A model generated the notes under the pieces. That model was not told where the DNA came from and did not search any database. It saw only the letters and a list, made by a program, of their open reading frames with translations. This document shows, one piece after another, positions 1 to 59,431 of a stretch of 60,966 bases of DNA; the first letter of the stretch is position 1, and every line of letters begins with the position of its first letter. Source of the DNA: a virus (taxonomy: Duplodnaviria > Caudoviricetes); the IMG/VR virus record IMGVR_UViG_3300017963_000051, positions 1-60,966 of that record; one strand, given 5' to 3'. The position numbers and the translations under genes were made by a program.

Positions 1-123
1 GGCCACACGGGCCTGCTCGCTCGCCTGGAGCGGGAGCACAAGTCCGCCACTCTCGACGAGTGGACGGACGCGGATTTCGCGCGACTTGCAAAATCGGTTG
101 TGAATAGGTAGTCAGGTAGTCAC
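1..123. repeat. Terminal direct repeat, left copy (circular assembly overlap)
   Basis: Identical to 60844-60966; ORF 60739..60954 runs through it. Confidence 0.97.
106..122 (+). promoter_or_regulatory. Operator-like tandem repeat AGGTAGTCAGGTAGTCA
   Basis: Motif recurs about 10 times, always near gene starts. Confidence 0.75.
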
Positions 124-124
124 T

Positions 125-403
125 ATGAAAGCCCGAAACTTGTCCCTGTTCGTGCCCCTGCTCGCAGGGTGCATCTATGCCAACCGAGCCCCCGGCACCG
201 TGGCCGCACAGGGCGGTGACATCTCCGAGGCGGTGGACCCGGCGATGGACCACTGCCGACGCAAGGAGGTGGACCTGGGGATGGTCTGGCGTCCCGAGGA
301 CCGCGAGATGTGCGTACGCAACTCGATGGGCCGTGATGCGTGGGAGCAGCTCCCGAACCACCCGCACCAGCACGCGAGCGTGCAGAGGTGGATCGGGGAC
401 TAG
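125..403 (+). CDS. Small predicted lipoprotein
   Basis: Basic N-terminus, hydrophobic stretch, lipobox LAG-C. Confidence 0.7.
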   Translation: MKARNLSLFVPLLAGCIYANRAPGTVAAQGGDISEAVDPAMDHCRRKEVDLGMVWRPEDREMCVRNSMGRDAWEQLPNHPHQHASVQRWIGD

Positions 404-42967: not shown

Positions 42968-44389
42968 CTAATCGGGCACGGACGGGTCAACGGCTGCCGC
43001 GTTGAGCAGGTTCCAGAGCGTGCTTGCGTGAATGTTCCCGAGCACCGCGAGGAGCTGGCGCGTCAGGGTCATTTTCGTAGACAGGTCGAGCGTGTCGATC
43101 TTGCGCTTGAGCCCGCGAAGTGCTTGCACTGCGGTGGAGTTGTCCTTCCCCGAGGAGAAACGAATCGCGTCATACACGTCGGGGCCCACCAGCGCCCGAA
43201 CCTTCTGCTCCTGGTGCTTCTCCAGCATGTGGAACCAGAGCAGAAGATGCTCATCGTAACCATTCGGCTCCGGATCGTTCTCAGTACCGCCAGAGAACGC
43301 GAGTTCCGGGAGTTCGGGCGGGGTCCAGTCGTCTCCCGAGGGGATGTCGGCGGTCATGGGATCGGGCCCCTTTTGGGGTTTTGCCTTCTGCGGAGCAGGC
43401 ACGGCACGCGGTGCAGGTGCACCAGGCATCGCCATTGCAGGAGCCTGTGCAGGCATCTGCGGCTGCTGGGGACCTCCCATGCCTCCGAGAGCGTCCATGA
43501 CACCTCCGGCCCCTCCCTGGTTCGCTCCCTGCATCATCTGAACGAGCATCATGGCGCCTTCGGGCGGGATGCCCATCGCCTTGGAGATCAACATGGGCAC
43601 CGCAACGCTTCCGAGCTGCATCGCAACGTCCCACTTCTGCTGCTGCGCCGCTTGATCCGCGCGAGCCAGTTCCGCCTCCAACTCCATCTTGCGCGTCGCC
43701 GTGCTCTTTTGCTCGCTCTCTTTCCAGAGCAGCGAAGCCTCGTGCAACGTCGTGGCGCTCGACTTGGCAACCTCGCCCACACTCGTGGCGATGGCGGGCA
43801 GCTCGTGAGCGCTTCGACAGACCGCGTCCACGAGCTTGTCGATCCGCTTCGCATACTCCTCTTCTCTCTTCATGATGAAGCGCCTCAGCTCATCGTTTTC
43901 GTTTCGCTGCTGCTCGAAGAAGAAGCGAAACAGTTTGAGATCGGTGCGCTCCCGGTCGTCGACCACAGAGTCATCGAACACGGGCGCCCCGTTGACGATC
44001 TTCACCGTGAACTCTCGACGAATCCACTTGATGTCGCCACCCGGGGAGTCGTACCGGATCGCCGTCCGGTAGCAGTATTCCTCGGGGTCGTCAACGGTTT
44101 TTGCGTGACGCTCGGCCAGCTTCATGAGCTGCTGGCCCATGGCATCGACGCTGGGGCGGTTGTCGGGGTCCACAATCAGCTTCCCCGACGCAGACTTGAA
44201 GTTCCGGTCGCCAGGCCCACGCGCTTCGATCCGGAGATCGATGATGGTGTCGTGGTGCTCCTCGATGCGCTCCATGATTTTCGAGGGCAGCTCCGTCATC
44301 TGCACGCTGACAGAACGGTCCCCTTCGTAGAACGGCACGCTTCCTGGGGCCGGATTCGACTCCGCCCACATCGACAGATCGTCGCTCAT
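42968..44389 (-). CDS. Hypothetical protein (coiled coil, hydrophobic segment, Pro/Gly/Met-rich linker)
   Basis: AGGAG RBS; divergent from the structural operon. Confidence 0.8.
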   Translation of the reverse strand: MSDDLSMWAESNPAPGSVPFYEGDRSVSVQMTELPSKIMERIEEHHDTIIDLRIEARGPGDRNFKSASGKLIVDPDNRPSVDAMGQQLMKLAERHAKTVDDPEEYCYRTAIRYDSPGGDIKWIRREFTVKIVNGAPVFDDSVVDDRERTDLKLFRFFFEQQRNENDELRRFIMKREEEYAKRIDKLVDAVCRSAHELPAIATSVGEVAKSSATTLHEASLLWKESEQKSTATRKMELEAELARADQAAQQQKWDVAMQLGSVAVPMLISKAMGIPPEGAMMLVQMMQGANQGGAGGVMDALGGMGGPQQPQMPAQAPAMAMPGAPAPRAVPAPQKAKPQKGPDPMTADIPSGDDWTPPELPELAFSGGTENDPEPNGYDEHLLLWFHMLEKHQEQKVRALVGPDVYDAIRFSSGKDNSTAVQALRGLKRKIDTLDLSTKMTLTRQLLAVLGNIHASTLWNLLNAAAVDPSVPD

Positions 44390-44581
44390 GATGTCTTCTC
44401 TCCTGTTTGGCGCAAACAACGCGCCTTTGGGCTTCCTGTAGTGCAGAATAGCGTCATTTAGCGGCAGAATAGAAACTATTTGAAGCAAAGAGTAGCGCTG
44501 CGCGTGAAGCGCTGTTTACATAGAGGTGCGCGAGATTACCTCGCACGCGAATAGCGCTACACGCGCGCACGGAGATTCAAC

Positions 44582-44932
44582 ATGAAGAAGATCGCCATTC
44601 CCGGATCCCGGAACGAGTTGGAGAAGAAGTACATCGCCTCGCAGACCAAGCTCATGCGAGCTGCCTCCGAGGCCAAGCGCATCGGTGAGAACATGGTCGA
44701 GGTGGCGGTGGCCGGCGGTACCGCCTACCTGTACGGCGTGGTGGAGGACAAGCTCCCCTACGAGGGCAAGATCCCCGGCACCGAGATCGGCTTCGACCTC
44801 GCGGGCGGACTCGCCCTCACGGTCGGTGGCGCCGTCATGAAGGGCAAGATGTCCGGCGCCGTTCAGGCGGTCGGCATGGGCCTCCTACTCCCGGCGCTCC
44901 GTGAGTACGGTCGCGCCGCGACCTTCTTCTAA
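44582..44932 (+). CDS. Small Gly-rich membrane protein, first gene of structural operon
   Basis: GGAG RBS; three hydrophobic segments. Confidence 0.8.
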   Translation: MKKIAIPGSRNELEKKYIASQTKLMRAASEAKRIGENMVEVAVAGGTAYLYGVVEDKLPYEGKIPGTEIGFDLAGGLALTVGGAVMKGKMSGAVQAVGMGLLLPALREYGRAATFF

Positions 44933-44940
44933 GGGTCACC

Positions 44941-45138
44941 GTGACGGTTCGGGACGTCGCTACCGTGGTCGGGGCAGTCGCAGGTACCACCCTGACGATC
45001 GTCCTCCTCGCAGAAAAGCTCGGCAGGCGCCGATCTTCTGAGGGGCACGACTGCGGCACGACTGCCGATTGCGAGTCCATGCTCGCGTGTATCGACGGCA
45101 AGTGCGTCCCGGACCCTCGCAAAGTTCCCTCTCCCTGA
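44941..45138 (+). CDS. Small TM protein with Cys-rich motif
   Basis: TM then CGTTADC..CIDGKC. Confidence 0.6.
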   Translation: MTVRDVATVVGAVAGTTLTIVLLAEKLGRRRSSEGHDCGTTADCESMLACIDGKCVPDPRKVPSP

Positions 45139-45276
45139 CACGGTCACCAGGGCAGAGCGCCGTCGCCGGGCCAAAAATACAGGCGAGTGAACTGACCATC
45201 CGGTGCCGGGAAACAGGCACGCGCGAGACGAGAAACGATTTCCACCCCTCTACCGCCCGCAAGGGCAACCGGAGAC

Positions 45277-46098
45277 ATGAAGATGAACCAGAAGATTTCT
45301 CGCGCTTACGCGCACGCCATGAAGAACGCCCGCATTTCCGGCGGGATGCCCGACCTCCAGGACGTCAAGCAGATCGCTGACGAGTTCCACGGCAACGGTC
45401 GCCTTCGCCAGCTCGCCGAGCGGGCCGCGGCCGAGAGCGCCATCGCCAGCGTTGGCGGTCGTGCCGGCGTCAACTATCGCGGCATGGGTCGTGACCACGG
45501 CAAGGCCGGTTACGGTACCATGGGCGGCAACGGCAACTCCTGCGCTCGTGACTACACCCCGACCCACGGGTCGGACGGTCGCGTGAACACGGAGGACCAG
45601 GGCTACAAGGAGCGCGGCGTCCCCTCGTTCCGTGGCCTGGCCGACTGCGACGAGGCCCCGTACTGCGGTGGTGACATCCTGGGCTTCAACACCCTGGAGG
45701 CCGCCAACTTCCCGCTGTCCGGTCCTCCGGCTCCCCTTCCGCCCCCTGCTCCGGTTCCCCCCGCGGCGATCGGTGCGGCGATCAACATCAGCTCGGAGAC
45801 CGCGGACGTCTACCAGCCTCGCGCGCTGTTCTTCGAGTTCCGTGACGTCGAGCAGAGCTTCGCTGTGATCCCGGGTCTCCTTCAGGACGCCCGCATCGGC
45901 CCCGCCCAGCAGACCATCGGTGGTGCTGTCGGCAACGGCATCACCTCCGCGGTGTTCGCCCTGACCAACACCCCACTGCCGGTGGGTTGGGATGCCTTCC
46001 GCAACGTCGGTGGGCAGACCCTCCAGCTCACCTTCGCCAACTTCCTGGTCGGCACCAACGCCCAGGTCTTCGGCGTGCTCTGGGGCGACGCCAAGTAG
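45277..46098 (+). CDS. Candidate major capsid protein (single jelly-roll-like C-terminal domain, Gly/Arg-rich N-terminal arm)
   Basis: About 140-aa all-beta C-terminus; own 140-nt leader; downstream UUCG hairpin; fold is inferred. Confidence 0.6.
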   Translation: MKMNQKISRAYAHAMKNARISGGMPDLQDVKQIADEFHGNGRLRQLAERAAAESAIASVGGRAGVNYRGMGRDHGKAGYGTMGGNGNSCARDYTPTHGSDGRVNTEDQGYKERGVPSFRGLADCDEAPYCGGDILGFNTLEAANFPLSGPPAPLPPPAPVPPAAIGAAINISSETADVYQPRALFFEFRDVEQSFAVIPGLLQDARIGPAQQTIGGAVGNGITSAVFALTNTPLPVGWDAFRNVGGQTLQLTFANFLVGTNAQVFGVLWGDAK

Positions 46099-46109
46099 TC
46101 GCCTCTTCG

Positions 46110-46140
46110 AGCGCTCCCGCACCTTCGGGTGCGGGGCGCT
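46110..46140 (+). terminator. Stable UUCG hairpin (mRNA stabiliser or partial terminator)
   Basis: CCCGCACC-TTCG-GGTGCGGG. Confidence 0.7.
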
Positions 46141-46163
46141 CCCTCAAGTTTTAGGATTCCGGT

Positions 46164-47069
46164 ATGGCAGACACACGCATCCCCGTCCAGCAGCTCGCGG
46201 TAGGGTCGAAGTGGTGGGACTCCACCGGGGTTCAGTTTCTCGTGCAGACTCCGACGCCGAACCAGCGTACGGGGTACAGACCGATCAAGTTCGTTTCGCT
46301 GAAGCCGAAGTCGAAGCTGTGTGACCCCGATGGCAAGCCTTGCTCGCTGTGGTGGACGGTCAACGCGAACGCCTCTGAGTTCTTCCGGGTCGTGCCCAAC
46401 AGCACGAGCCTGACGCTGCCCCGCTTTTCGGACATCGAGAACGCGGGACTGCCGGCGTCACTGCTCCAGCTCCAGGTGGAGTGGGACAGCTCCACGGCGT
46501 TCGTGGACATCGGCCCCGGAACTCGTTTCAGCATCCTGGCACCGACGATCACCCTCGGCCTGTGGGTACCGAGTACGGCGGTCGTGCCGAACAAAAACAC
46601 CGCCAACCAGGCGGTGCGTACGGGTCTCACGACGCCAGCTCCCGTGAACGAGTACACGGTGGTCGATGCTGCGGCGACGGTGAGCGTTTCGTGTTCGACG
46701 GCGCCGATCGGCGACCGGATCGCCACGGTGACGCGAAGTTACACGCCGACCGGAACGGATCTGCCTACGGGGCAGTACGACGGGTTCCCGCTGAACCCGG
46801 CGGTGGCAGGGACCTACGAGATCCCCCCGCGTGCGCGTCGCGTGCAGTGGTCGACGAACATCCCCGGATTTACTCCGGGCGTGGGCGTGGGCCCGATCTA
46901 CCGCTCCCCTTCTCCTGCGGCGGGCTCCATCGACCGCGGGCAATACGACGCTTGGGGTCGCGCCATGAGCAACATCCACGACATCCCACGAAACGCTACG
47001 TTCGTGGACCTGGGGCTGTTTGCCGGAAGCGTCGACTACCTTACCGCTGTATGGGAACTGGAGATGTAG
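46164..47069 (+). CDS. Beta-rich structural protein (second capsid or penton candidate)
   Basis: Follows the capsid candidate; beta-strand pattern, Thr/Pro/Val rich. Confidence 0.65.
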   Translation: MADTRIPVQQLAVGSKWWDSTGVQFLVQTPTPNQRTGYRPIKFVSLKPKSKLCDPDGKPCSLWWTVNANASEFFRVVPNSTSLTLPRFSDIENAGLPASLLQLQVEWDSSTAFVDIGPGTRFSILAPTITLGLWVPSTAVVPNKNTANQAVRTGLTTPAPVNEYTVVDAAATVSVSCSTAPIGDRIATVTRSYTPTGTDLPTGQYDGFPLNPAVAGTYEIPPRARRVQWSTNIPGFTPGVGVGPIYRSPSPAAGSIDRGQYDAWGRAMSNIHDIPRNATFVDLGLFAGSVDYLTAVWELEM

Positions 47070-47070
47070 C

Positions 47071-47598
47071 ATGAAGGACCACCACAACCTCGTCATCGAG
47101 ATCCCCAAAGCCAAGAGCGAGCAACTCCGCCGCTACTGGCAGCGCATGGTCGACGGGCTGAGCGAGTACAACGCGGAGTGGCTCGCCGACCATCCCGAGG
47201 CACAGGACGGACCGTTCCCGATGTACGAGCTGCCGCGCTCTGGCGGCCGGTGTGCGGACCAACGGGTGGCGAGCGCTCCCATCATCCTGGAGCGGAACAA
47301 AGCCACTTGCGTGGAGTGGGCGTGCTTCATGGTCGGCTTGTACCGGCTCCGAGGCGAGACCGAGGCGTACGTGCGTCTCATCCCGATCTTCTCCGAGACC
47401 TACGGACGTGCGGTGCCCTACCAGTACCACGCAGTCGTGGTCCGGGCCGATGGCACCATCGAAGACGTCACCGCGGACCTGCCCGGGTACAACCTCCCGG
47501 GCCCGTGGTGGAAGGCCGCGGGGCACTGCTGCGCAGACTGTGCCCTCGGCAAGCACGGCCCTGTGGAGCCGTGTGAGCCCTGCGCGGAAGGACACTAG
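47071..47598 (+). CDS. Transglutaminase-like (papain-fold) cysteine protease candidate
   Basis: ATCVEWAC helix, YHAVV, IEDVT give a C-H-D triad in order. Confidence 0.7.
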   Translation: MKDHHNLVIEIPKAKSEQLRRYWQRMVDGLSEYNAEWLADHPEAQDGPFPMYELPRSGGRCADQRVASAPIILERNKATCVEWACFMVGLYRLRGETEAYVRLIPIFSETYGRAVPYQYHAVVVRADGTIEDVTADLPGYNLPGPWWKAAGHCCADCALGKHGPVEPCEPCAEGH

Positions 47599-47601
47599 AC
47601 C

Positions 47602-48090
47602 ATGAAGACGAGCAACCTACTTCTCCTTCTCGCCGCTGGCGCGGGCGTCGCTTTCGTCATGGCCGGCTCGGGTTCGAGCGGTTCCGGTCCGACCTTGACG
47701 CGACTGAAGCCGAACCGGCTTTCGTTCGTGGACGTCGGCGAGACATACCTGCTCGAAGTCGAGGATGTGCCGGATGCCATCCTCGCCATGGCGCAGCCGG
47801 ACGGTAGCCTTCCGTTGGATTCCGTCATCGTCAACACGGTGCACGACATGGCGACGGAGGGTGAGGCTTTCATCGACGAGAACGGCAGGCTGGTACTTCC
47901 GGTGACGTTCCTGTCACCGTCTGAGAAGGCCGAGGACGTGCAGCTCTTGTGGGGCTTGGGCACGCCCTTTCCTGTGGGCTCGTTCAACATCAATGCTCGG
48001 ACCGAAGCGGCTTCCATGGGCCGGCGTCGGCTCACAGGTCGCCGTGTGGGTCACCACCACGAGTTGGTGCGTGTGCCGGGGGTGGTCTAG
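47602..48090 (+). CDS. Membrane-anchored virion protein candidate
   Basis: N-terminal LLLLLAAGAGVAFV. Confidence 0.7.
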   Translation: MKTSNLLLLLAAGAGVAFVMAGSGSSGSGPTLTRLKPNRLSFVDVGETYLLEVEDVPDAILAMAQPDGSLPLDSVIVNTVHDMATEGEAFIDENGRLVLPVTFLSPSEKAEDVQLLWGLGTPFPVGSFNINARTEAASMGRRRLTGRRVGHHHELVRVPGVV

Positions 48091-48092
48091 CC

Positions 48093-48632
48093 ATGTTGTG
48101 GATTCTCATCCCGTGCGGCATCGCTGCCTGTCTGGCTCTCGGAACGGACTCCGAGAAGAAGCGCGAGCAGGAAGAGAAGAAGCGGCGGGGCCAGATGGGC
48201 CGCCGGGGGGTCTCGCGCGTGGTCGGGTCCTACGCCTGGGAGGGCAAGCCGAGCTACCGCCGAGCGATGCCCCTGACGGGCGTCACGGCTCGGCCCCGCT
48301 CCTACTCCTGCCCCGAGCGAGCGCTCCCGTACAGACACCCGCTGGAGTCGGGGATTCTTCCCTGGCTTCCGGACCGGGTCGACGATGCCATCGTGCACCA
48401 GATCAACCACGGGCACCGTGACTGCGATGTGATCGCCACGCTGGTGCTGCGGGAGGTCTACCCGGTGACGACGAGCGGCGAGCCGATCTCCTGGCCCTGT
48501 GTCCCCCGCGACGCGGCGGCGCTCGGGTGCCTGGAACAGCGAGTGAAGATCCGAGTGCAGCGACACCTCGCGGAAGTCTCGGATCTTGAAGCGGACCACG
48601 ACTACCCCGACGATACGGGGCTGGAGGACTGA
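48093..48632 (+). CDS. Membrane-anchored virion protein candidate
   Basis: N-terminal MLWILIPCGIAACLALG. Confidence 0.7.
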   Translation: MLWILIPCGIAACLALGTDSEKKREQEEKKRRGQMGRRGVSRVVGSYAWEGKPSYRRAMPLTGVTARPRSYSCPERALPYRHPLESGILPWLPDRVDDAIVHQINHGHRDCDVIATLVLREVYPVTTSGEPISWPCVPRDAAALGCLEQRVKIRVQRHLAEVSDLEADHDYPDDTGLED

Positions 48633-48635
48633 ACC

Positions 48636-49067
48636 ATGGCGCACAGCAAGCACACCCACGAACAGATGGCGATCTACAACTCCAAGGAGATCGCCCACTA
48701 CGCCCGAGAGATCGTCCGCATGTTGGAGGCCGGCGAGCCCCTCATGCCCTGGCAGGCCAATCTCCTCGCCAAGTGCCGGTCGAGTATCGGCGAGGTCAAG
48801 CACCGCATGGAGACCCGCTCGGGCGCCATCGGCCAGCCTGTCAGCGCCATGAACCGCGCCGCGACCGGCCAGCCCATCAGCGCCATGAACCGAACCGCGG
48901 GCATGTCCGGAGACCCGGACCGGGATGGACATCCCGACATCATGGAAAGCGGTCTCTCGGGTTCGCAGCGCATCGCCAAGATGCGGGCGAAGAACGCGAA
49001 CTATGGGGGCCACAAGGGTGGCACCCCCTACCGCCGCTACATGAAGAAGAAGTCGGCGAAGAAGTAG
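48636..49067 (+). CDS. Small basic protein with internal duplication (core protein candidate)
   Basis: GQP(V/I)SAMNR twice; Lys-rich tail. Confidence 0.75.
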   Translation: MAHSKHTHEQMAIYNSKEIAHYAREIVRMLEAGEPLMPWQANLLAKCRSSIGEVKHRMETRSGAIGQPVSAMNRAATGQPISAMNRTAGMSGDPDRDGHPDIMESGLSGSQRIAKMRAKNANYGGHKGGTPYRRYMKKKSAKK

Positions 49068-49074
49068 TCTACCC

Positions 49075-49695
49075 ATGAGCAACTCCCGCACCGGCATGTA
49101 CGTGGGCGCAGGCATTCTCGGCCTCGCTCTGATCGCCTCTCTTCGCCCCCGAGACGCTGAGACCGAAACGGTTTCTGGCGGCGACGGCGACGGCGACGGC
49201 GATGGTGATGCCGTGGACGACGATCCCACACGGGGTGCCATGGGCTTCTCGCCGGCCCGCTACATCCGAAACGATGCGGTGCACGGCAGCTTCTACGAAT
49301 CCCGACGCGGGGACCTGCTGCTCGGGAAGGGTCCGAAATCGATCACCTGGCGGGCGCTGTTTCAGGCTGCACTCGATGCGGGCTTTCAGGCCGAGTCCGA
49401 TGATGGTGTCTCGGCTGAGTGCATCGCCAACGACAGCGCTCGTCGGGTGGCTTACGCGGGGTTGATCTGTGCAGCCCCGGCGAACGCCGCCCATCTCACG
49501 CACGACCTGCGCGAGAGAGACTTCCGCAACCACGAGGGCGTGGGCATCGATCTCCGCACACGCCCCCTCCTTTGGCTTCCGGTCATCGACCTGGAGATGC
49601 TCACCCGCTGTGGCGTCATCCAGTCGACCGTCTGGGAAGAGGACGGCACGTCCACCTTGGAGATCCCACCGGAGCTTCGCTATGTCGAACGGTAA
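49075..49695 (+). CDS. Membrane-anchored virion protein candidate
   Basis: YVGAGILGLALIA; (GD)n linker. Confidence 0.7.
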   Translation: MSNSRTGMYVGAGILGLALIASLRPRDAETETVSGGDGDGDGDGDAVDDDPTRGAMGFSPARYIRNDAVHGSFYESRRGDLLLGKGPKSITWRALFQAALDAGFQAESDDGVSAECIANDSARRVAYAGLICAAPANAAHLTHDLRERDFRNHEGVGIDLRTRPLLWLPVIDLEMLTRCGVIQSTVWEEDGTSTLEIPPELRYVER

Positions 49696-50185
49696 GGACA
49701 TTCCCTGGACCTGGATTCTCGGTGGCGGTGCCATCCTCGCTGTCGGCCTGTTCGCCTTCCGTCGCGGTGGGGGCAGCGTCGAACAGAAGGCGCTCGGCGG
49801 CGACGGGGAGCTGGTGGACATCTTCGTTCCCGAGGATGCCAGCGAAGTGGCCCCGGATGATGCCCCGCCGCCTGGCCCCCCTTCGGGTATCCCGGCGGAG
49901 GTGGAGACGTATGGACGTGAGCTGGCGTCGGCGGAGATCGCAAACCGCTTCCGAATCGAGTTCATCCAGTTCGGCAAGCTCCACAAGGGGGAGTGGCGGA
50001 TCTCCTACGTCATCAACGTGTACGACGCAGAGGGCAGCGGCATCGAGACCTTGCCCGAGCTGTGGGACGGGTACTGGAACCCGGACCTCATCATCGCTGA
50101 AGGTCATTTCGACAGCGACGAGTACGACGCGGCGCGTAGCTACTATGACACGAACCTCGGCCTACTCGTGGAGGCGGCCGAGTGA
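49682..50185 (+). CDS. Membrane-anchored virion protein candidate
   Basis: PWTWILGGGAILAVGLF. Confidence 0.7.
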   Translation: MSNGKDIPWTWILGGGAILAVGLFAFRRGGGSVEQKALGGDGELVDIFVPEDASEVAPDDAPPPGPPSGIPAEVETYGRELASAEIANRFRIEFIQFGKLHKGEWRISYVINVYDAEGSGIETLPELWDGYWNPDLIIAEGHFDSDEYDAARSYYDTNLGLLVEAAE

Positions 50186-51165
50186 GCAAGGCGATCGGTT
50201 ACGTCGGTGCAGGTGCACTGACGCTTGCCGGGTTGTGGCTCATGACCCAGCCCGGCAGCGGCGGTCCTCGTGTAGAGGACGTCGCCCTACCTTCCGACGA
50301 GGTGTTGGACCTCGAAGCGGGCATGTTTGCCGTGCGCGAGAAGGTCAACGCAGACCCGACGATCTTGACGGCGGCGGACTGGTTGAAGCTGCGCGACCCG
50401 ATCCTCACCTACTTCGATCAGGTGGAGATCTTCATCATGGAGTCGACGCTTCATGTGGCCGCGGACGCGGTAACGATCAACCGCGGGGAGAACGGGCACT
50501 ACCTCACCGATGAGGCTGTCCGAGAGCAAGCGATGGCGGCGCTGGATAAGACGTACGAAGAGGTGAAGCCGGGGTGGCTGGATCAACTTGCGCCCTGGTT
50601 CGCGGGGCTTGGCATCCTCGGCGTGGCCCTCTCCGCTCCGGACATCGCGGTACAGCAGGAGCTTCTGCGTCAGTTCGAGCCGGTGTGGGACACCTACCAC
50701 GAGGCCCGAGCCCGGATCGAAGCGATTTTCGAGGCTCTCGAAGAGCTGCCCGCCGACACGCCAGACCCCCAGGTCAACATCGTGATCCCGGCGACGCCTT
50801 TCACGTCGGAGATCGTGCTCGACGAGATCACCCCCATGGAGATTCTCTTTGCCGAGGGCGGGCGCTCGTCGAGCTACGGTCTGTGGTGGGACGCCAAGAT
50901 CGCGGCAGACATGGCAGCACAGCTCACTGCGGTGTCGAGCGACCTGCCCGGAACGCTGCTCGAAGCGGTGCTCCAGACGACGGCGGAGTGGGCGGTGTTC
51001 GTCATGGCCGAGCTGCTCGGCATCATGCTCGAACTCGTGGGCGTGAGCGACGAGAACATCGAGAAGGCGAAAGAGCTTTTGAACAGCAACCCGAACACAG
51101 CGCTCGGAGCCATGCTCGTGCTCGCGGGTGGGGTGGTGGCTTTCCAGACGGCGAGGACGCCGTAA
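50182..51165 (+). CDS. Acidic multi-TM membrane protein
   Basis: N-terminal, internal and C-terminal hydrophobic helices. Confidence 0.75.
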   Translation: MSKAIGYVGAGALTLAGLWLMTQPGSGGPRVEDVALPSDEVLDLEAGMFAVREKVNADPTILTAADWLKLRDPILTYFDQVEIFIMESTLHVAADAVTINRGENGHYLTDEAVREQAMAALDKTYEEVKPGWLDQLAPWFAGLGILGVALSAPDIAVQQELLRQFEPVWDTYHEARARIEAIFEALEELPADTPDPQVNIVIPATPFTSEIVLDEITPMEILFAEGGRSSSYGLWWDAKIAADMAAQLTAVSSDLPGTLLEAVLQTTAEWAVFVMAELLGIMLELVGVSDENIEKAKELLNSNPNTALGAMLVLAGGVVAFQTARTP

Positions 51166-51214
51166 GTCGGGCCGATGGCAACGAGATAACCCAGAAACGA
51201 CGGAGACAAAGACG

Positions 51215-51817
51215 ATGAACACGAAACTACTTCTCGGGCTGGGCGCTGGTGGGCTTGCTCTCCTCGCCCTGAGTGGGGCTGGCGGTGAGACGCCGGCCGA
51301 TGGCACGAAGCCGGCTGGCAAGGGCCTCGGCCCTGGAACGAAGATTCCCGGGGGCCCGAACCCTCCGGCGATCGACAAGCAGACGGAGGCCAAGGTGACG
51401 GCTCTTTCGCGCGATCTCATGAACGCCCTGGGCTACGCCTTCGAGACGGGTGATGCGTCCGCGGACGCGAACCAGATCCGGCGCTTCCAGACGCAGTACA
51501 ACGCGGTCAGCCGCCTCGCGGGGTCGAACCTCGCGGGCATCTCGGTGCCCTCGAACATGGGCACCGTGGACGTCAACGAACCTGGGGATTCCAAGATCCC
51601 CGCTGCGACGAAGGCGGCCCTGAACGCTGCCCTCGCGGTCTCGGGTGGCCCCGAGTACGTGGAGACGTTGCTCAAGCCGTACCTGCTCGAAGAGGATGAC
51701 GACCTGCTCCTTCCGGACACGCCCTGGCTCGACATGGTCCGGGCGGCGTGCATCAAGCACGACCAGTGGCTTTGTGTCGAGTGGATCGACGAAGGCGCCA
51801 ACCCCTACGCGACCTAG
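51215..51817 (+). CDS. Membrane-anchored protein with peptidoglycan-binding-like motif
   Basis: LLLGLGAGGLALL; LMNALGY..IRRFQ..PAATKAAL. Confidence 0.7.
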   Translation: MNTKLLLGLGAGGLALLALSGAGGETPADGTKPAGKGLGPGTKIPGGPNPPAIDKQTEAKVTALSRDLMNALGYAFETGDASADANQIRRFQTQYNAVSRLAGSNLAGISVPSNMGTVDVNEPGDSKIPAATKAALNAALAVSGGPEYVETLLKPYLLEEDDDLLLPDTPWLDMVRAACIKHDQWLCVEWIDEGANPYAT

Positions 51818-51837
51818 CGGCGTGGTAGAGTGGAGGC

Positions 51838-52251
51838 ATGTCCGCAATGAAGAGCATCAAGGTCCAGGCCCTGAGCAACGGGTTGATCCTCCACGTCCAC
51901 ACCAGCAAGGGGGAGCAGCAGTTCCTCGTGCCCAACGACAAGTCTTCGGCGTACAAGGCGTTTGCCGAGGCGTGCAAGGAAGCGCTGGACAGCGTGTCGG
52001 AGCCCGAGCCCGAGCCCGAGCCCGAGCCTAGCATGGGCTTCGGCCCGAACTTCGGTCCTACCTCGGACCCCGAGGAGGACGCGGACAACATGAGTCTGGG
52101 GGAAGCGGCGAACGTGTTTCTGTCGCAGAACCCGGGGATCGGTGACTTTCTCGGGAAGTTCATCGGGGGCATGAATGAGGCCGAGAAGAAGCGGGCGGAG
52201 GGGCTCCGTCGCCGCGATGAAGAGTTGCGGCGGCGCCGCGAAAGGAAGTAG
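51838..52251 (+). CDS. Hypothetical protein
   Basis: gTGgTAGAGT 6 nt before ATG. Confidence 0.7.
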   Translation: MSAMKSIKVQALSNGLILHVHTSKGEQQFLVPNDKSSAYKAFAEACKEALDSVSEPEPEPEPEPSMGFGPNFGPTSDPEEDADNMSLGEAANVFLSQNPGIGDFLGKFIGGMNEAEKKRAEGLRRRDEELRRRRERK

Positions 52252-52255
52252 TGAC

Positions 52256-52639
52256 ATGGCGAAGAAGACCGAGAAGAAGCAGTCGATCGCGGCGGGTTTG
52301 ACGGACGCGCAGCGCAAGGGGATCAAGGCGATCAAGGCGGGGCGCAAGCCCAACGTCGGCCAGCTCTCCAGCCTACGTCGTGCCAAGCTCGTGAAGAAGG
52401 ACGGCGAGTTGTCGGCGTCGGGCAAGCGGGCGGCGGCTTCCATCGCCCGTAGCGAGACGTCGTCGAAGCCGAAGAAGGCTGCGAAGAAGAAGGCCGCGAA
52501 GAAGGGCAAGCGCAAGTCCACACAGATGGCGATCACCGCCAAGGGCAAGCGAGTTCCGAAGAAGGTGCAGGAGTGCGCCATCATCCTCGGGCACCACTCC
52601 CGCGGTACGCTTCAAGGCGTCGAGATCGTCTACGTCTAG
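52256..52639 (+). CDS. Lys-rich DNA-binding or condensing protein candidate
   Basis: wHTH-like LTDAQR..LRRAKLV..LSASGK plus KKAAKKK. Confidence 0.7.
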   Translation: MAKKTEKKQSIAAGLTDAQRKGIKAIKAGRKPNVGQLSSLRRAKLVKKDGELSASGKRAAASIARSETSSKPKKAAKKKAAKKGKRKSTQMAITAKGKRVPKKVQECAIILGHHSRGTLQGVEIVYV

Positions 52640-52648
52640 GGCAGGTCC

Positions 52649-53335
52649 ATGAAGTGGTGGATTCCAGTTGCAGCAGGGGCCGGGGCCCTGCTCATTCTCG
52701 GGGGGAGCAGCGCAAGCGCTGCCGACTCCGGGCTGGGATCTCTCGACCTCGACATTCCCGGAGGCGCCACCCCGACCGACTTTGACCCGTCCATCCTCTC
52801 GGACAAGGCACGGCGCGTGTACGACTATGCCCGCCACGTCGAAGATCTGGGGATCTGGACGCCAGGCTTTGCCGAGTTCGCAGTTGCCACGAGCCGCATC
52901 GAGAGCGGTCACAACCCGAACGCGATGAACAAGTCGAGCGCGTTTGAGAACGCAGCCCGAGGGCTCTATCAGATCCGACCCAAAAGCGCTTTCAGTTGGC
53001 GCAATGGGCTGGAGCACCTCCAGGACCAGCCCGAGCTGTTGTTCGATCCCTCATGGGCGACGGCGGTGGCAGCCGACTACGCCAAGCGCTTGGTGGATGT
53101 GTACGCGGACCCGGGGCAGCGTGTGACGTGGGCGGACCTTCGGCGAGGCTGGAAGTACCCGAAGCTCGTGGCGGAGCAGTACCGGGCGACTGAGACCGCC
53201 AACCTTGCTCAGTTTCTGAACAAGGGCATCGACAACACCACGCAGCGCCGTGAGTTGGCCTTGGAAGAGGCTACACTCGGCACGTGGCCCGGAGTGCTCG
53301 AACTGCAAGCCTACCTGGCCGAAAAGGAGTTCTAG
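52649..53335 (+). CDS. Membrane-anchored lytic transglycosylase (SLT-like)
   Basis: IESGHNPNA, ARGLYQI, LFDPSWATAVAADY; N-terminal TM. Confidence 0.88.
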   Translation: MKWWIPVAAGAGALLILGGSSASAADSGLGSLDLDIPGGATPTDFDPSILSDKARRVYDYARHVEDLGIWTPGFAEFAVATSRIESGHNPNAMNKSSAFENAARGLYQIRPKSAFSWRNGLEHLQDQPELLFDPSWATAVAADYAKRLVDVYADPGQRVTWADLRRGWKYPKLVAEQYRATETANLAQFLNKGIDNTTQRRELALEEATLGTWPGVLELQAYLAEKEF

Positions 53336-53339
53336 GACC

Positions 53340-53699
53340 ATGCCGAAGTTCAACGTCGTTCGAGGAGAAGCCCGTGCACGTGCAGGAAACGCGGAAGAGA
53401 CCGCGTCGCAGCCGGAGCAGAAGAAGGCTACCAGCAGCTCCGGCGGGGGCTGGTGGATGCTCCTGCTTGGGGCAGGGGTCGGAGCGCTAGGCTATCACTA
53501 CCTGCTTCGCAACGCGCAGTCCTTCATGGGCGGCGGCTTGAACCTTGGGGGCAACGGGGGGCAGACCCAGGTCTCAGGCGCTCGCGGGCGCTTCCTCGCG
53601 GCCACACAGGCGCCCCAGGCGGTGCCCCAGGTCCAGTACGTGCCGGTGCAGACGCAGGGCGGTCCGGTGGTCATGGAAGAGATCGAGGTTTTGGAGTGA
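53340..53699 (+). CDS. Single-TM protein
   Basis: WWMLLLGAGVGALGYHY. Confidence 0.7.
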   Translation: MPKFNVVRGEARARAGNAEETASQPEQKKATSSSGGGWWMLLLGAGVGALGYHYLLRNAQSFMGGGLNLGGNGGQTQVSGARGRFLAATQAPQAVPQVQYVPVQTQGGPVVMEEIEVLE

Positions 53700-54976
53700 C
53701 GATCTTCGCCACAGAGCTGGCGGAGGGGCTCGGGCTCGTGTTGCCCGACCCTGCCAAGCCGATCCTCTCCCTGGAGCCGTACTTCCGGGGGGCGTGGGGG
53801 TCGTCTGGCCTCGGCGATTTTGTGGACCCGTTCATGGACGTGGCCCGGACCGTCGGACAGCTTGTGGCTCAGCCGTTGGAGTTCGCGGCGGAGCTTCTCA
53901 CCATCATGGATGCGATTCCCGCGGAGGCGATTCCCTTTGCGGGGGCTACGATGAGTGTGGGGATCAACGCTTTCAAGTGGAAGCACGAGAGGGACGTGCG
54001 AGAGAGCCTTTTCGGGCTCGCTTTGGGCACGGGACGCCTTGCACAGCTTGGCGAAGATCCTGTGCCTGCATGGGCCAACGCGGTGGGCGTGCCGTCCTTC
54101 ATCGACTGCTCGGACATGAAGGACGCCCGTGCTCGGACGGTCGTCCCACCCCAGAAGATGCCCGCCCCCTGGCGCAACCCGGGGAGCTACTCCCAGCCCT
54201 CGGGCAACTGCGGGGCCGGCTATGCGGTGTGGTGCAACTTCGACCACTACCCGCACGGGAAGAAAAAGCCTGGAGCGGGTGGCAAGCGCTGTTCGGGGAA
54301 GGCAGACGTGTCGGCTCTCCTGTACCCGTACTGGACAGGAGCCCGCCCGCCAGGACCGGCACCGGCTTTCTTTGCGGAAGGCTCTTTCGAGCGTGAGCAT
54401 TTCGGCACGATCGACACGAACGCCGACATGCTCGCGGCGCAGTCGTACTACCTCGGCACGTGCTTTGGAAACTTCAGCGTCCGCATTTCGGACGTGGTCC
54501 GGATGCGAAACAACTTGCAGTCACGGGTCGGGAAGTACATCGAGATGCAGGTGGCCGACCCGGCGCAGAACTACGTCCTCACGGACGAGCGCTTGGCGGT
54601 GGGGATCACGATGTGCGATGCCTTCATCGCGGCCCGAGCCGCCTTCGTGCAGACGGATGAGGCGGTGGCGCTTTCGATGTCGCCCCCGCTGGCGGGACGG
54701 CTGGATCCGGATGCGAGGGCCGAGACGATGGCGTGGCTCGAAAAGAAGATCGCCAAGCCGAACGTGCCGGTGTTCGTGCCGGGGATCTCCGTGATCGGTC
54801 CGCAGACGCCTGACAATCAGCAGTACCAGGTCAGCGACGGCGAAGGCCCCTTCGTGGGCTACATCCCGGACCTGTCAGCGAAGATCGAAGCTCAAAACAC
54901 TAGCGATGGTGGCGGTGTGGGTGCCATCATGCTGCTCGCAGCGGGCGGGCTGATCTACACCCTCACGAGGAGATAG
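53696..54976 (+). CDS. Virion membrane protein candidate with C-terminal TM
   Basis: GTGA-coupled; ends GAIMLLAAGGLIYTLTRR. Confidence 0.75.
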   Translation: MTIFATELAEGLGLVLPDPAKPILSLEPYFRGAWGSSGLGDFVDPFMDVARTVGQLVAQPLEFAAELLTIMDAIPAEAIPFAGATMSVGINAFKWKHERDVRESLFGLALGTGRLAQLGEDPVPAWANAVGVPSFIDCSDMKDARARTVVPPQKMPAPWRNPGSYSQPSGNCGAGYAVWCNFDHYPHGKKKPGAGGKRCSGKADVSALLYPYWTGARPPGPAPAFFAEGSFEREHFGTIDTNADMLAAQSYYLGTCFGNFSVRISDVVRMRNNLQSRVGKYIEMQVADPAQNYVLTDERLAVGITMCDAFIAARAAFVQTDEAVALSMSPPLAGRLDPDARAETMAWLEKKIAKPNVPVFVPGISVIGPQTPDNQQYQVSDGEGPFVGYIPDLSAKIEAQNTSDGGGVGAIMLLAAGGLIYTLTRR

Positions 54977-54981
54977 CGAAC

Positions 54982-55908
54982 ATGAAGCGTGCAACGATGG
55001 GCGGAGTCTACCGGGCGTACCAGGAACGCAAGGCGCGAGAGCAGGGACGCATGGGCGCCCCTGAAGGTGCTCTCGATGCCGTGCTCGAAGGAGCGCCCCC
55101 GGCGTGCCTGAACGTGGACCCCTGGAGCGGGAGCTTCACTGTCCGCTACGGCGGCCACGAGGCAATCGTCGAGGGGATGCTCTCGGGCTCGCAGTTCTTC
55201 GGGTGGGTTCCTGACGACTCGCAGGGCTTTTGGGACACCGCCACGAAGTACGCATGGGAGCAGACCCAGAAGTACATCAACGGTCTGAGCAACGCGATGC
55301 CGATGCCGTACATCGACAATGGTCGCGTCGCGGAGATCGTGCAGGCAGCGGCCGACGAGCGCTGGAACCTGACCCAGATGGTGTACGGGTTTGCGAACCC
55401 ACGATGGGAGCCGACCGAGGAGTTCGCGTTCCGCAAGGGGATGGCGCGGCTCGGGCAGCTCATCGCCTGCGGGCGCTACGCGGCGGCCCTCTCGAACCTC
55501 GTGCAGCGCTACGCGGACAAGGGTAAGGGCGACGACTACCCCTTCGGGCTCGACCCGAAGACTCAGCTTGGGGTCGGACCGAAGGCGTTTCCGCCCCCGG
55601 TGAGCCCCGAGGACCCCATCATCATCCCGGACCCCGTCGTCGAGCTGCCGGGCAAGTTCACCCTCAAACCAGCACCTCCAGCGCCCCCGAAGACCCCGGT
55701 CGTGGACGCAAGCCGTTTTGGGATCACGGTGGGCCCCGGAGGAGCAGACACTTCGTTCGACCCGCAAGAGGAGGACAAGGAAGGTCCCTGGACGGGTGCA
55801 ACGGGCGAGACTGAAGAGAAGCCGCCCTACAAGGCAGATGCCGGGGGCATGATGTTCCTGGCCTTCCTCGCCGCGGCAGGGGTGGGCTACGTCGTCCTGA
55901 AGAAGTGA
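54982..55908 (+). CDS. Virion membrane protein candidate with C-terminal TM
   Basis: Ends FLAFLAAAGVGYVVLKK. Confidence 0.75.
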   Translation: MKRATMGGVYRAYQERKAREQGRMGAPEGALDAVLEGAPPACLNVDPWSGSFTVRYGGHEAIVEGMLSGSQFFGWVPDDSQGFWDTATKYAWEQTQKYINGLSNAMPMPYIDNGRVAEIVQAAADERWNLTQMVYGFANPRWEPTEEFAFRKGMARLGQLIACGRYAAALSNLVQRYADKGKGDDYPFGLDPKTQLGVGPKAFPPPVSPEDPIIIPDPVVELPGKFTLKPAPPAPPKTPVVDASRFGITVGPGGADTSFDPQEEDKEGPWTGATGETEEKPPYKADAGGMMFLAFLAAAGVGYVVLKK

Positions 55909-55923
55909 TTTGAGGGTGTTGCC

Positions 55924-56103
55924 ATGCCGCTGAAGAAAGGGACCTCTCAGAAAGTCGTGAGCGCGAACATTCGCCAGCTCATGGCGGAGGGGTATCCGCA
56001 CAAACAGGCGGTGGCGATTGCCCTCGACACAAAGCGCAAGTCCGAGAAGAAGTGCAAAACCAAAGACGGCAAGCGGTACTGCTACGTCATCCTAGAAAGG
56101 TAG
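55924..56103 (+). CDS. Small basic phage protein (MPLKKG...QAVAIAL family, 59 aa)
   Basis: Translated by hand: MPLKKGTSQKVVSANIRQLMAEGYPHKQAVAIALD. Confidence 0.8.
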   Translation: MPLKKGTSQKVVSANIRQLMAEGYPHKQAVAIALDTKRKSEKKCKTKDGKRYCYVILER

Positions 56104-56107
56104 AATC

Positions 56108-56863
56108 ATGACCATCCCCAACACCCTCCCCGCACGCACGCCTGTTGGTTTTCGCCCTGTCGGTTGCTGCCCTCCCGACCTTGTGGTGGCGAGTATCGAC
56201 GGGCTCGCGTCTCCGATCGACGAGACCTTGCGCTTCGTTCAGTTTCCGCTCACGCCCGCGAACCCCATAGCGACGCTTGTGCTGTTCGGTCTGAACTTCG
56301 ACAGGCAGACGCAGATCAAGTTGCTGGCTCCTCCGGTGACGGTGCCCCCGCTGCCGCCGGTTCCCCCCAACACGCTCGCGCCTCCGACGCTGACCGAGGT
56401 TGCGCGGATTCTCCCGAATCTCGCAAACAACGAGGCGGGGCTGCTTTCGTTCTCCCTGGAGGCGACGCAGTTCCCCGCGCCGGGAGACGACCCCGAGGGG
56501 TGGGGGATTGCGGTGGTGAACAGTTGCGGCTGTTCTCAGGTCATCGGTTTGGTCCTGGTGGGCGAGGGTGCGGCGAGCTGTCCGGAACTGCTTTCGCTCT
56601 CACCGGGCCCGTACATCTCTGGGGCTCCGAGCGCTCTCATGACCCTGACGGGCGTTGCACTCGATGGGTCGTACACGCTCGACGTGACGAGTGCTGTCGG
56701 CGGCCCGATCCCGTTCTTCCCTGCGGGTCCTCCGGCTCCCGCGAGCTACGACATCTCGCTCGACCTCTCCCTGGTGCCCCAGGGGCCTGCCACTGTGACC
56801 TTGACGCCCACGGATCCCGGGTGTCCTCCGACGTCGCTTCCCTTCACCATCATCTCGGCATAA
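56108..56863 (+). CDS. Two Ig/IPT-like domain structural protein
   Basis: LVLFGLNF...VVNSCG; LTGVAL...ATVTLT. Confidence 0.7.
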   Translation: MTIPNTLPARTPVGFRPVGCCPPDLVVASIDGLASPIDETLRFVQFPLTPANPIATLVLFGLNFDRQTQIKLLAPPVTVPPLPPVPPNTLAPPTLTEVARILPNLANNEAGLLSFSLEATQFPAPGDDPEGWGIAVVNSCGCSQVIGLVLVGEGAASCPELLSLSPGPYISGAPSALMTLTGVALDGSYTLDVTSAVGGPIPFFPAGPPAPASYDISLDLSLVPQGPATVTLTPTDPGCPPTSLPFTIISA

Positions 56864-56873
56864 GGGAAAGGCC

Positions 56874-57347
56874 ATGGGCATTCCGGGCAACGTCACAGTC
56901 CGCACTCCTGAAGGGATGCGCCAGATCGGCAACCAGCCGATCTACCTGCGCAGCTTCTACCAGGACGATCCGCCACGCCTGGGCTCCGGGACGTATGCTG
57001 AGAGCTTCCCGGTTCCCCAGAACTACGGGGCCCGCCTGTTCCGACTGGAGTACCTGTCGGTCCGGTGGGACTTCCCGTTCTCTGCGGGCGAGAGGGCCAG
57101 GATCCGTCTCTACCGCTACCGGAAGACGGGGGAGTTCGGAACCTTCTTCTATCAGCAGATGACGAACACGTTTGACGCTGACGATACGCGGGACTGGAGC
57201 TGGACGTACGACATCAGCGACCGGATCCGAAACGATTTTGAGTTGAACCCGATCACAGACTCCATCGCGGTGAGCAACGTGTACACTGCGGGGGGCACTC
57301 CGAGTGTCCGAGCGCTTCGCGTGGACTTCGGACTGAAGGTGGTGTGA
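56874..57347 (+). CDS. Beta-sandwich structural protein (vertex candidate)
   Basis: All-beta pattern, 157 aa. Confidence 0.65.
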   Translation: MGIPGNVTVRTPEGMRQIGNQPIYLRSFYQDDPPRLGSGTYAESFPVPQNYGARLFRLEYLSVRWDFPFSAGERARIRLYRYRKTGEFGTFFYQQMTNTFDADDTRDWSWTYDISDRIRNDFELNPITDSIAVSNVYTAGGTPSVRALRVDFGLKVV

Positions 57348-57471
57348 CGATGGAACCGAAGAGAGAGAAACCCGTGTGGCCTCCCGCAACGACTCCGGAA
57401 GAGCAGAAGGCGGACGATGAGGGCGGCCGAGAGAAGGAAGAGCCGACCAAGCCAGCGGAGGGTGAGAGGCA

Positions 57472-58260
57472 GTGAGCACGCCAAAGACATTAGTCGCGCG
57501 CACTCCCGAGGGTTTTCGCGTTGTGGGACCGTCTGCACAGCCTGGTGGTGGGGGAGTGTCTCGGGACTTCTCTGTCAATGAGGCACAGGCTTACCTTACC
57601 TCCGAGCCAGAGCTGGTGTTGCGAACCTCAGCTCTCGCGCCCGGGGCTGGCGGCTACAACGGTGGAGGTGTTGGGAACAAGGCGATCTGGGGTGTGTGGG
57701 GGCTTGACGGGCTTCCTATCGCTCAGTTTCTCTCGGCGGAGCTTGTGTGGACGAATGTTGTGGGGCCCGCGGGGATCAACTACATCCCGGCGGAGCCCAC
57801 CACCGTTGCCACTCCGTACCTCAACTTCCTCGTGGACTTCGATCCACTCGGTGCCGGCGACATCCGGGTGTGTGTCATCTGCACCGATCAGCTCAACCCT
57901 GCGATCAACAACGCAGTCGGAACCCAGGCCAACAACGGATCGAACGAACTGACCTACTCATGGGACGGCAATACACAGGACGTCCTGATCGTCGGGGCAC
58001 CTCCGGCAGCCGTGCCGGGCGGAGTCGCACCGAACGTGTCCGTCGGTCCCGGTTGGTTTGAAAACAGCTACACCTGGCAGGCTCTGGTAGCCGCCAATCC
58101 TAGTGCCGTGCTTGTGGATGCGTACAGCGGCGACGGTGGACTTCCTGCGGGAGCGATCACTCCGGCGTTCATGGTGATCTCCGGAGACAGCAATGCGCAG
58201 ATCAAGCAGGGCAAGCGCATCCTTTCCCTCGACGCCAATGGCATTGATGGGCTCGCGTAG
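57472..58260 (+). CDS. Spike or receptor-binding candidate
   Basis: Gly/Asn-rich beta protein; shares V(A)RTPEGxR with the upstream protein. Confidence 0.65.
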   Translation: MSTPKTLVARTPEGFRVVGPSAQPGGGGVSRDFSVNEAQAYLTSEPELVLRTSALAPGAGGYNGGGVGNKAIWGVWGLDGLPIAQFLSAELVWTNVVGPAGINYIPAEPTTVATPYLNFLVDFDPLGAGDIRVCVICTDQLNPAINNAVGTQANNGSNELTYSWDGNTQDVLIVGAPPAAVPGGVAPNVSVGPGWFENSYTWQALVAANPSAVLVDAYSGDGGLPAGAITPAFMVISGDSNAQIKQGKRILSLDANGIDGLA

Positions 58261-58288
58261 TTTCACAAGGACACGAAAGACAATCACG

Positions 58289-59023: not shown

Positions 59024-59071
59024 AATCCCCCACGGTCACTACACGACGACCATTCAGAGGAGAAAGACATC

Positions 59072-59431
59072 ATGAGCGCAGATCAGATCAAGCCGGGCAA
59101 CCCCGGAATCACGGGCCGGGCTGCCGGCAATCAGACCATCGACGACGCCACCGTACCTGTGCAGAGCATCGGTAGCGGCACTCGCACGGTGCGTGCCGAC
59201 ACCACGGGCGGGAACATCCAGGCGGACCTTCCCAACGCGCAGGGCTACGCGGGCTCGTCCATCGCTCTCGACTACGTGGCGGGCGGCAACCAGCTCGTGC
59301 TCGCGGCGGCCAGCGGCAACACCATCCTCGGCCCATCGGGCACCTCGGGACCGTCCGAGACCTTGGCCGCGGACGGACTCTTCCTGCTCGTGCCCTTCGG
59401 CACCGAGTGGCGCGTCTTCGTCAGCGCCTAG
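59072..59431 (+). CDS. Small beta-rich structural protein
   Basis: ADTTGGNI..LP..G..GNTI..GTEWRV resembles fibre or decoration domains. Confidence 0.7.
   Translation: MSADQIKPGNPGITGRAAGNQTIDDATVPVQSIGSGTRTVRADTTGGNIQADLPNAQGYAGSSIALDYVAGGNQLVLAAASGNTILGPSGTSGPSETLAADGLFLLVPFGTEWRVFVSA

Follow-up and report, generated by a model that had tools for sequence, protein, structure and literature searches.

The window analysed here is the complete 60,966-bp record of the virus IMGVR_UViG_3300017963_000051, which has direct terminal repeats, and a terminal repeat of 123 bp was confirmed. The gene under study is an open reading frame (ORF) on the plus strand, ORF 45277 (45277..46098, 273 aa). It is preceded by a 5' leader of 138 nt (45139..45276, plus strand), which lies between the stop codon at 45138 and the ATG at 45277 and contains two stem-loops, and is followed 11 nt past its own stop codon by a GC-rich hairpin with a UUCG loop (46109..46141, plus strand) that is terminator-like or RNA-stabilising. 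The neighbouring ORF 46164 (46164..47069, plus strand, 301 aa) likely encodes a major capsid protein (MCP), as indicated by two beta domains, matches to double jelly-roll (DJR) coat proteins and a homotrimer model. A sequence-only reading of this locus had described for ORF 45277 a leader of about 140 nt, frequent CGT and GGT codons, a UUCG hairpin past the stop, a poly-Pro loop and a C-terminal beta pattern of about 140 aa. The ORF and all of these features were confirmed by the analyses described below, which also showed close linkage to ORF 46164 in a module of virion type. The N-terminal arm of 130 aa, which had been described as Gly/Arg-rich and disordered, proved to be Gly-rich and moderately Arg-rich, while residues 4-53 were predicted to be helical with low confidence and only about 75 aa appear disordered.

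The GC content of ORF 45277 by codon position was 0.67, 0.50 and 0.85, the pattern of coding sequence in this genome of 64% GC. Close homologues begin at its third codon and a GGAGA sequence is located 8 nt upstream of that ATG, so the true start is probably at 45283. A word-indexed search identified 35 homologues at E<=0.01 (212-335 aa) and a profile search of 1.84 billion representatives identified 63 clusters at E<=1e-3 (100-301 aa), with the matched stretch ending at or near the C-terminus in all 63. The conserved core of the family is the C-terminal domain, while the N-terminal part is variable in both length and sequence. Two cysteines, Cys124 and Cys130 (Cys-x5-Cys), were invariant in 36 sequences, and a Cys pair or triplet was kept at this place in distant members. 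None of the homologues carries a name or a Pfam domain, and the target itself matched no Pfam, PHROGs or NCBIfam family. Searches of 50,697 phage records by tblastn with ORFs 45277 and 46164 returned no match, profiles of the two families against PDB sequences gave nothing meaningful, and four scans of IMG/VR with the alignment of the target family and three subfamily alignments found no relative.

The protein can be divided into three parts. The N-terminal segment, residues 1-53 (45277..45435, plus strand), was modelled with helices at residues 4-20, 27-38 and 42-53 at a predicted local distance difference test score (pLDDT) of 47-65, and includes the invariant residues D26 and D29. A Gly-rich linker follows at residues 54-130 (45436..45666, plus strand), which is poorly conserved, ends in the Cys124/Cys130 pair and is probably disordered, as pLDDT was below 50 for residues 53-130. 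Residues 1-130 contain 15.4% Gly and 9.2% Arg with a net charge of +3, and residues 56-130 contain 21.3% Gly with a net charge of 0. The arm is therefore near neutral and is not a classic basic arm of the kind that binds nucleic acid. Residues 131-273 (45667..46095, plus strand) were confidently modelled by AlphaFold2 from a 36-sequence alignment as a jelly-roll-type beta-sandwich with pLDDT of 76-94 in 10-residue blocks, and structural matches extended over residues 127-273. The poly-Pro loop is located at about residues 146-166, and eight of its residues, which the four closest homologues lack, were inserted in this genome only. Among the two core genes that were folded, ORFs 45277 and 46164, the target is the only one that models as a single beta-sandwich.

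Structural searches grouped the C-terminal domain with jelly-roll proteins, a class assignment judged by its structural neighbours. A weak list of Foldseek matches in the PDB included Eph ligand-binding domains, P3 of PRD1 and PR772, tymovirus coat proteins, SPV1, P23-77 VP16 and BclA. In a Foldseek-independent search of 48,161 chains, virus capsid or scaffold proteins made up 16 of the best 50 rows and were from PBCV-1 (two entries), HCIV-1, FBNSV, STMV, EhV, faustovirus, HHIV-2, ASFV (p72), SPV1, Orf virus (scaffold), MSV, P23-77 (VP16 and VP17), STNV and PRD1. Domains of the PHM, GOLD, discoidin and neuropilin types scored equally well, and the structural neighbours as a whole (jelly-roll capsids and PHM, CUB, discoidin and GOLD sandwiches) had Z scores of 5.6-7.4. 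When the top 995 chains from Foldseek were re-aligned, 30 of the best 50 rows were virus capsid or scaffold proteins, and the second jelly roll of PRD1 P3 aligned with the target at Z 6.9. The penton proteins PRD1 P31, the HCIV-1 and SH1 vertex proteins and STIV A223 were not among the best 50 rows of either comparison, an absence that is uninformative. According to the guidance of the alignment tool, a Z below 8 may reflect merely a common arrangement, so these scores support the fold class and do not establish homology to any given capsid protein. The ESM Atlas returned 30 clusters of look-alikes at a score of 0.94, which were viral hypothetical proteins of 175-193 aa mostly carrying the automatic label Uroviricota.

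The leader of ORF 45277 contains stem-loops at 45163-45186 and 45203-45220, and in ten aligned leaders each loop starts with GGG and ends with ACA. RNAalifold predicted 11 pairs from these leaders, including five with changes on both sides and one that was a G-U pair in three sequences, which favours an RNA structure over a DNA palindrome. In this structure 94.5% of cells were paired, a value that none of 500 shuffles reached, as was also the case for the covariation score, while slid controls gave 21-50%. The number of pairs with double-sided changes was reached by eight of 500 shuffles. Because the ten leaders come from only about four lineages, there are few independent covariation events. 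An Rfam search of positions 44400-46300 returned no family, and the stem-loops are a candidate for a new cis-regulatory RNA. Translational control, or antitermination acting on the hairpin downstream, would be guesses as to its role.

Signs of high expression were also present within and downstream of the gene. CGT accounted for 5 of 16 Arg codons and GGT for 15 of 37 Gly codons, where the corresponding fractions over the 45 genes counted were 0.117 and 0.144. The region of the downstream hairpin (70 nt) folded at -32.9 kcal/mol with z = -3.9, and none of 200 shuffles folded equally well. A UUUU run begins 7 nt past the stem, which explains why the hairpin was missed by a consensus terminator scan. 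Of 22 related intergenic regions, 21 have a strong hairpin at this position despite differing sequences, and in several of them a U run comes directly after it, as in intrinsic terminators. Any transcription from upstream into the coat gene would need to pass this hairpin. ORF 45277 was the only gene of its tightly packed module with long spacers on both sides.

A homologue of ORF 46164 comes directly after that of ORF 45277 in 29 of the 33 related loci. The remaining four contigs stop no more than 350 nt from the target gene, too early to judge. On two related contigs (L022 and L034) about 750 nt separate the target and coat-gene homologues, and an extra gene was seemingly inserted at this place. 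AlphaFold2 modelled ORF 46164 from 21 sequences as an all-beta protein (pLDDT 84.5, predicted template-modelling (TM) score 0.83) with domains at about residues 2-180 and 185-301. Foldseek returned 25 PDB matches at E<=1e-3, the best with an E of 3.5e-5 and a probability of 0.98. All 13 matches listed in ranks 1-16 were DJR coat proteins of PRD1, PR772 or STIV (E 3.5e-5 to 4.6e-4), and the first protein of another kind among the matches listed was at rank 24. Both domains aligned with PRD1 P3, residues 12..301 with 35..381, at Z 6.8 over 203-209 residues. A homotrimer model had a median score of 0.74, where the best of three controls scored 0.00, and the trimer runs agreed in at least 94% of contacts with a partner pLDDT of at least 83. 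The interface was head-to-tail, mainly placing domain 2 of one copy on domain 1 of the next, as expected of a ring of six jelly rolls. The ESM Atlas gave weak leads only for this protein (0.83, DUF7243). A comparison of the two families by hhalign had a probability of 0.13% and hence gave no sign that one had arisen from the other.

For ORF 46164 these results support a DJR-like coat protein at moderate strength and, in a model only, a trimer, both as in a Bamfordvirae-type module. The best matches to DJR proteins together with the homotrimer make it the likelier of the two proteins to form the capsid lattice, and its modelled structure indicates that it is probably a DJR-type MCP. ORF 45277 is consistent with a single jelly roll. 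For the two beta domains of ORF 46164 the best alignments are those with DJR proteins, which do not distinguish side-by-side from stacked jelly rolls.

ORF 45277 very probably encodes a structural protein, and a vertex or accessory shell protein is the most likely kind. In DJR viruses (Bamfordvirae) the pentons are built from the conserved single jelly-roll protein. As the target is a core gene that is always beside the coat gene and the penton is the usual single jelly roll, a penton would be the default reading. We give about even chances to the interpretation that ORF 45277 has a structural role in an icosahedral virus that lacks a tail and is probably lined by a membrane, as the single jelly-roll partner of the DJR MCP encoded by ORF 46164 and not as the protein that forms the lattice. 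Trimers of ORF 46164 resembling PRD1 P3 would tile the facets, and the C-terminal jelly roll of ORF 45277 would oligomerise and be built into the same shell. Analogy with the minor capsid proteins of DJR viruses that have a single jelly roll suggests that it would most probably form a pentamer and seal the twelve vertices. Both chain ends of vertical jelly rolls face inward, and the conserved N-terminal helices on their Gly-rich tether would then reach an internal membrane or core and anchor the shell. The invariant Cys pair, at the base of the jelly roll, would lie near a subunit interface. With its structured leader and downstream hairpin the gene would be expressed as a regulated cistron of its own.

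The Tectiviridae PRD1 and PR772 are among the closest known systems. ORF 46164 best matches P3 with both domains and models as a trimer, a single jelly-roll protein is present in the same module (P31 is the PRD1 penton), and the module encodes many small membrane proteins and an SLT transglycosylase. The transglycosylase of the PRD1 virion is P7. Differences are also apparent, as the N-terminal extension of the target is 130 aa long and its expression signals are stronger than those of any other gene in the module, there is no sequence similarity, and P31 was not among the target matches listed. The genome is also far larger, 61 kb, and that of SSIP-1, a phage considered below, is about 44 kb. 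Passages of a 2018 survey of prokaryotic DJR viruses put their genomes at about 7-18 kb and state that an FtsK/HerA ATPase is encoded by most of them, though not by such groups as Odin and FLiP (PMC5894146).

Several observations weigh against the assignment of ORF 45277 as a penton-like companion of a DJR coat protein. The particles of the virus are unseen. Foldseek returned no PDB match for the target at E<=1e-3, and the highest Z in the Foldseek-independent search was 7.4, where 99 chains reached a Z of 5 and no chain reached 8. Since the matches are only at background level, the jelly roll says little about function. For ORF 46164 the TM-scores to DJR coat proteins were low (0.24-0.27), and the two-domain alignments with PRD1 P3, PR772 and STIV (VIA-align) covered 194-209 residues at Z 6.4-6.8 with a root-mean-square deviation (rmsd) of 6.0-6.8 A, while single-domain CUB and SIDT1 matches scored above these at up to Z 8.3. 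In a calibration with two copies and the alignments of the tool itself, 20 of 30 solved homomeric pairs attained the mark used for the trimer, as did one of 23 single chains, and these counts are only approximate for ORF 46164. The trimer result may also reflect likeness to solved DJR trimers, a likeness that we count as the point of the comparison. [quoted passage not shown] A penton needs far fewer copies than a coat protein, yet codon bias is stronger in the target than in any other of the 45 genes counted, with a CGT plus GGT frequency of 0.073 per codon. The gene has a leader of its own and is separated from the coat gene by a terminator-like hairpin, and together the codon bias, the spacers and the hairpin argue for more protein than a penton would need. 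Its BLAST identity exceeded that of ORF 46164 at 16 of the 18 distinct loci, and since the alignment lengths differ this measure is rough. These expression signals and the conservation keep alive a model with two MCPs as well as a cement or linker role.

The sequence-only reading had taken ORF 45277 for a single jelly-roll MCP with ORF 46164 as a partner capsid protein or penton. The jelly-roll type of fold was retained, while the major role appears to belong to ORF 46164, whose two beta domains, DJR matches and modelled homotrimer do not suit a second single jelly roll or a penton, so that the roles are probably reversed. It is somewhat unlikely, in our judgement, that ORF 45277 is nonetheless a vertical single jelly-roll MCP that forms pseudo-hexameric capsomers with ORF 46164 as a larger second MCP, in the manner of the Helvetiavirae (VP7 and VP4 of SH1, HHIV-2 and HCIV-1, and VP16 and VP17 of P23-77) and reportedly of SSIP-1, or that the two share a mixed lattice in comparable amounts. 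The gene order resembles that of the Helvetiavirae, with a small jelly-roll gene followed directly by a larger beta-rich gene. The comparison of structures that had been proposed with SH1-type proteins, VP16/VP17 and the portoglobovirus SPV1 did return matches, which were all within the background range of Z. Chains of about 170 aa, which we take to be VP7, were among the best matches and were covered nearly whole, namely 6h82_D of HHIV-2 (Z 7.3, 114 residues aligned, rmsd 3.1), 6h9c_I of HCIV-1 (Z 7.2, 114 residues, rmsd 3.0) and 6qt9_g of SH1 (Z 7.1, 112 residues, rmsd 3.0), and P23-77 VP16 aligned at Z 6.3-6.5. The VP7-type scores were tied with those of the STMV coat protein and PHM and GOLD domains. 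The signs of high expression of the target and its conservation, equal to or above that of ORF 46164, would suit an MCP. In contrast, the model of ORF 46164 resembles a fused double jelly roll that trimerises alone and not a jelly roll with a tower, its best matches are DJR coat proteins over both domains, and since it models as a homotrimer it would need no partner to build a pseudo-hexamer. The two families share no profile similarity. Sphaerolipoviruses have a packaging ATPase gene upstream of the capsid genes, and none was found here. Passages of a review (PMC6356626) describe SSIP-1 as a tailless, membrane-containing bacteriophage with a PRD1-type architecture, two MCP types and almost no similarity in databases, and credit IN93 with the same architecture and also two MCP types. 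The single jelly-roll MCP of SPV1 (VP4, Portogloboviridae) aligned with the target over 106 residues at Z 6.0 (6oj0_Z), which is weaker than many other jelly rolls, and SPV1 has an archaeal host and nothing else in common with this virus.

We consider it unlikely that ORF 45277 is an outer or accessory virion protein, with the jelly roll as a binding module on a flexible Gly-rich stalk. In that case it might be the head of a spike or fibre, a protein that decorates or cements the capsid, or one that links the capsid to the membrane. Weak matches in BFVD to collagen-repeat proteins with globular heads from phages and giant viruses (E 7.4e-4 to 4.2e-3), and also to phage virion proteins, point in this direction, as do the discoidin, neuropilin, CUB and GOLD binding modules at Z 6-7, the look-alikes in the ESM Atlas and the variable N-terminal part. 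The Gly-rich region has no collagen-like periodicity and the labels of the Atlas are automatic. Receptor-binding heads usually vary fast, and the target domain is among the most conserved of the module, while ORFs 56108, 56874 and 57472 look more like exchangeable spikes. A role outside the virion, as an abundant scaffold or a host-directed or secreted factor that is merely located beside the capsid gene, is the least probable of the explanations considered. Nothing places ORF 45277 directly in particles, the terminator-like hairpin divides it from the capsid gene and all fold matches are at background level. Such a role is opposed by the lack of any predicted signal peptide or transmembrane segment, by its strictly kept position next to the capsid gene in all loci of sufficient length, and by a fold class typical of capsid proteins. 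Also improbable is a bolder form of the shell-protein interpretation, in which the product of ORF 45277, far from being a penton in low copy number, would be abundant and serve as a second protein of the shell. The virus would belong to a new lineage of large, motor-less bacterial viruses that combines single and fused double jelly rolls in one lattice, intermediate between Helvetiavirae and Bamfordvirae. The inward Gly-rich arm would then be trimmed during maturation by the adjacent Cys-His-Asp enzyme, as adenain acts on adenovirus precursors, and synthesis would be set by the leader RNA.

The GC content was 62-67% along the whole length of the genome. A gene map built from the GC content at third codon positions (GC3) resolved two strand blocks. 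The minus-strand block (about 2920-44488) encodes an integrase, ParB, an HNH nuclease, an amidase and a DUF3560 protein of 1847 aa, together with a family A DNA polymerase (PolA), a helicase, a nuclease of the PD-(D/E)XK type and a RepB-type primase to which a Walker A domain is fused. The plus-strand block (44582-59431) holds ORF 45277 and is nearly all without annotation, its sole family match being the SLT transglycosylase at 52649-53335. Families of HK97 capsid, portal, terminase and tail proteins were absent from the 38 proteins scanned against Pfam, the 19 scanned against PHROGs and the 10 scanned against NCBIfam. Six-frame searches of the record with Phage_capsid (PF05065), Terminase_6N (PF03237), FtsK_SpoIIIE (PF01580) and Pox_A32 (PF04665) each gave no match at E<=1, and the only clear Walker A motif among the called genes is that of the primase-helicase. 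A highly divergent packaging ATPase is possible. A single N- or C-terminal hydrophobic segment was common among the proteins of the plus-strand block, a pattern that would be consistent with a virus that has no tail and contains an internal membrane. The SLT domain and the many membrane proteins also raised the possibility of a module for conjugation or secretion, which was rejected as no VirB4, VirD4 or other such ATPase was found.

Two small genes directly upstream of the leader (44582..45138, plus strand) encode a Gly-rich protein of 116 aa and a protein of 65 aa with a transmembrane segment and a Cys-rich tail, and their synteny is conserved. Directly after ORF 46164, and part of the same syntenic core module, is a gene (47071-47598, plus strand) for a candidate thiol peptidase or transglutaminase-like enzyme of 175 aa, which matched no Pfam or NCBIfam family. 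Residues Q64, C80, H120 and D132 were invariant in 16 sequences of this family in the order of papain or transglutaminase, and the product could be a capsid maturation protease beside the coat gene. Three consecutive ORFs (56108-56863, 56874-57347 and 57472-58260) encode beta-rich proteins with a common N-terminal (T/V)xxRTPEGFRxxG-like motif, the last of which was below the GC3 filter and is located in an apparent gap of 845 nt. From their sequences these may be paralogous, exchangeable vertex or spike proteins with a common anchor. ORF 52175-52639 is Lys/Arg-rich and protamine- or H1-like, and basic C-terminal tails are present on the products of 48636-49067 and 51838-52251. These could be DNA-condensing proteins, which would suit a virus without a packaging motor.

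The host was only weakly indicated. The sole genome match of the target family was a 2.3-kb contig of a metagenome-assembled genome labelled Algisphaera (Planctomycetota), which was also the only one of 401 Planctomycetota genomes to hold the family. The presence of amidase and SLT genes suggests that the host is bacterial. Near-identical DNA was present whole in two of 17 DNA sequencing runs (sediment or seawater, both possibly the source) and in part in runs labelled sediment, seawater and estuary, and no RNA run was among the runs with such DNA. A search of literature listings found no publication on jelly-roll viruses of Planctomycetes/Planctomycetota or on bacterial DJR viruses of such size.

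If the interpretation as a companion of a DJR coat protein is correct, the gene pair would mark a lineage of tailless jelly-roll bacterial viruses without a recognisable packaging ATPase and with a genome more than three times the 7-18 kb given for prokaryotic DJR viruses in the 2018 survey (PMC5894146). The pair is outside every Pfam, PHROG and NCBIfam family scanned and such viruses would escape marker-based detection, for which the 63 clusters of the target family could serve as a marker. The leader RNA, the terminator-like hairpin and the possible maturation protease would bear on the regulation and assembly of large jelly-roll capsids.

At the end of the minus-strand block, divergent from the virion block, an ORF at 42968-44488 (minus strand) encodes a protein of 506 aa with coiled-coil-like and Gly/Met/Pro/Gln-rich low-complexity stretches, and its synteny was kept in nine related loci.

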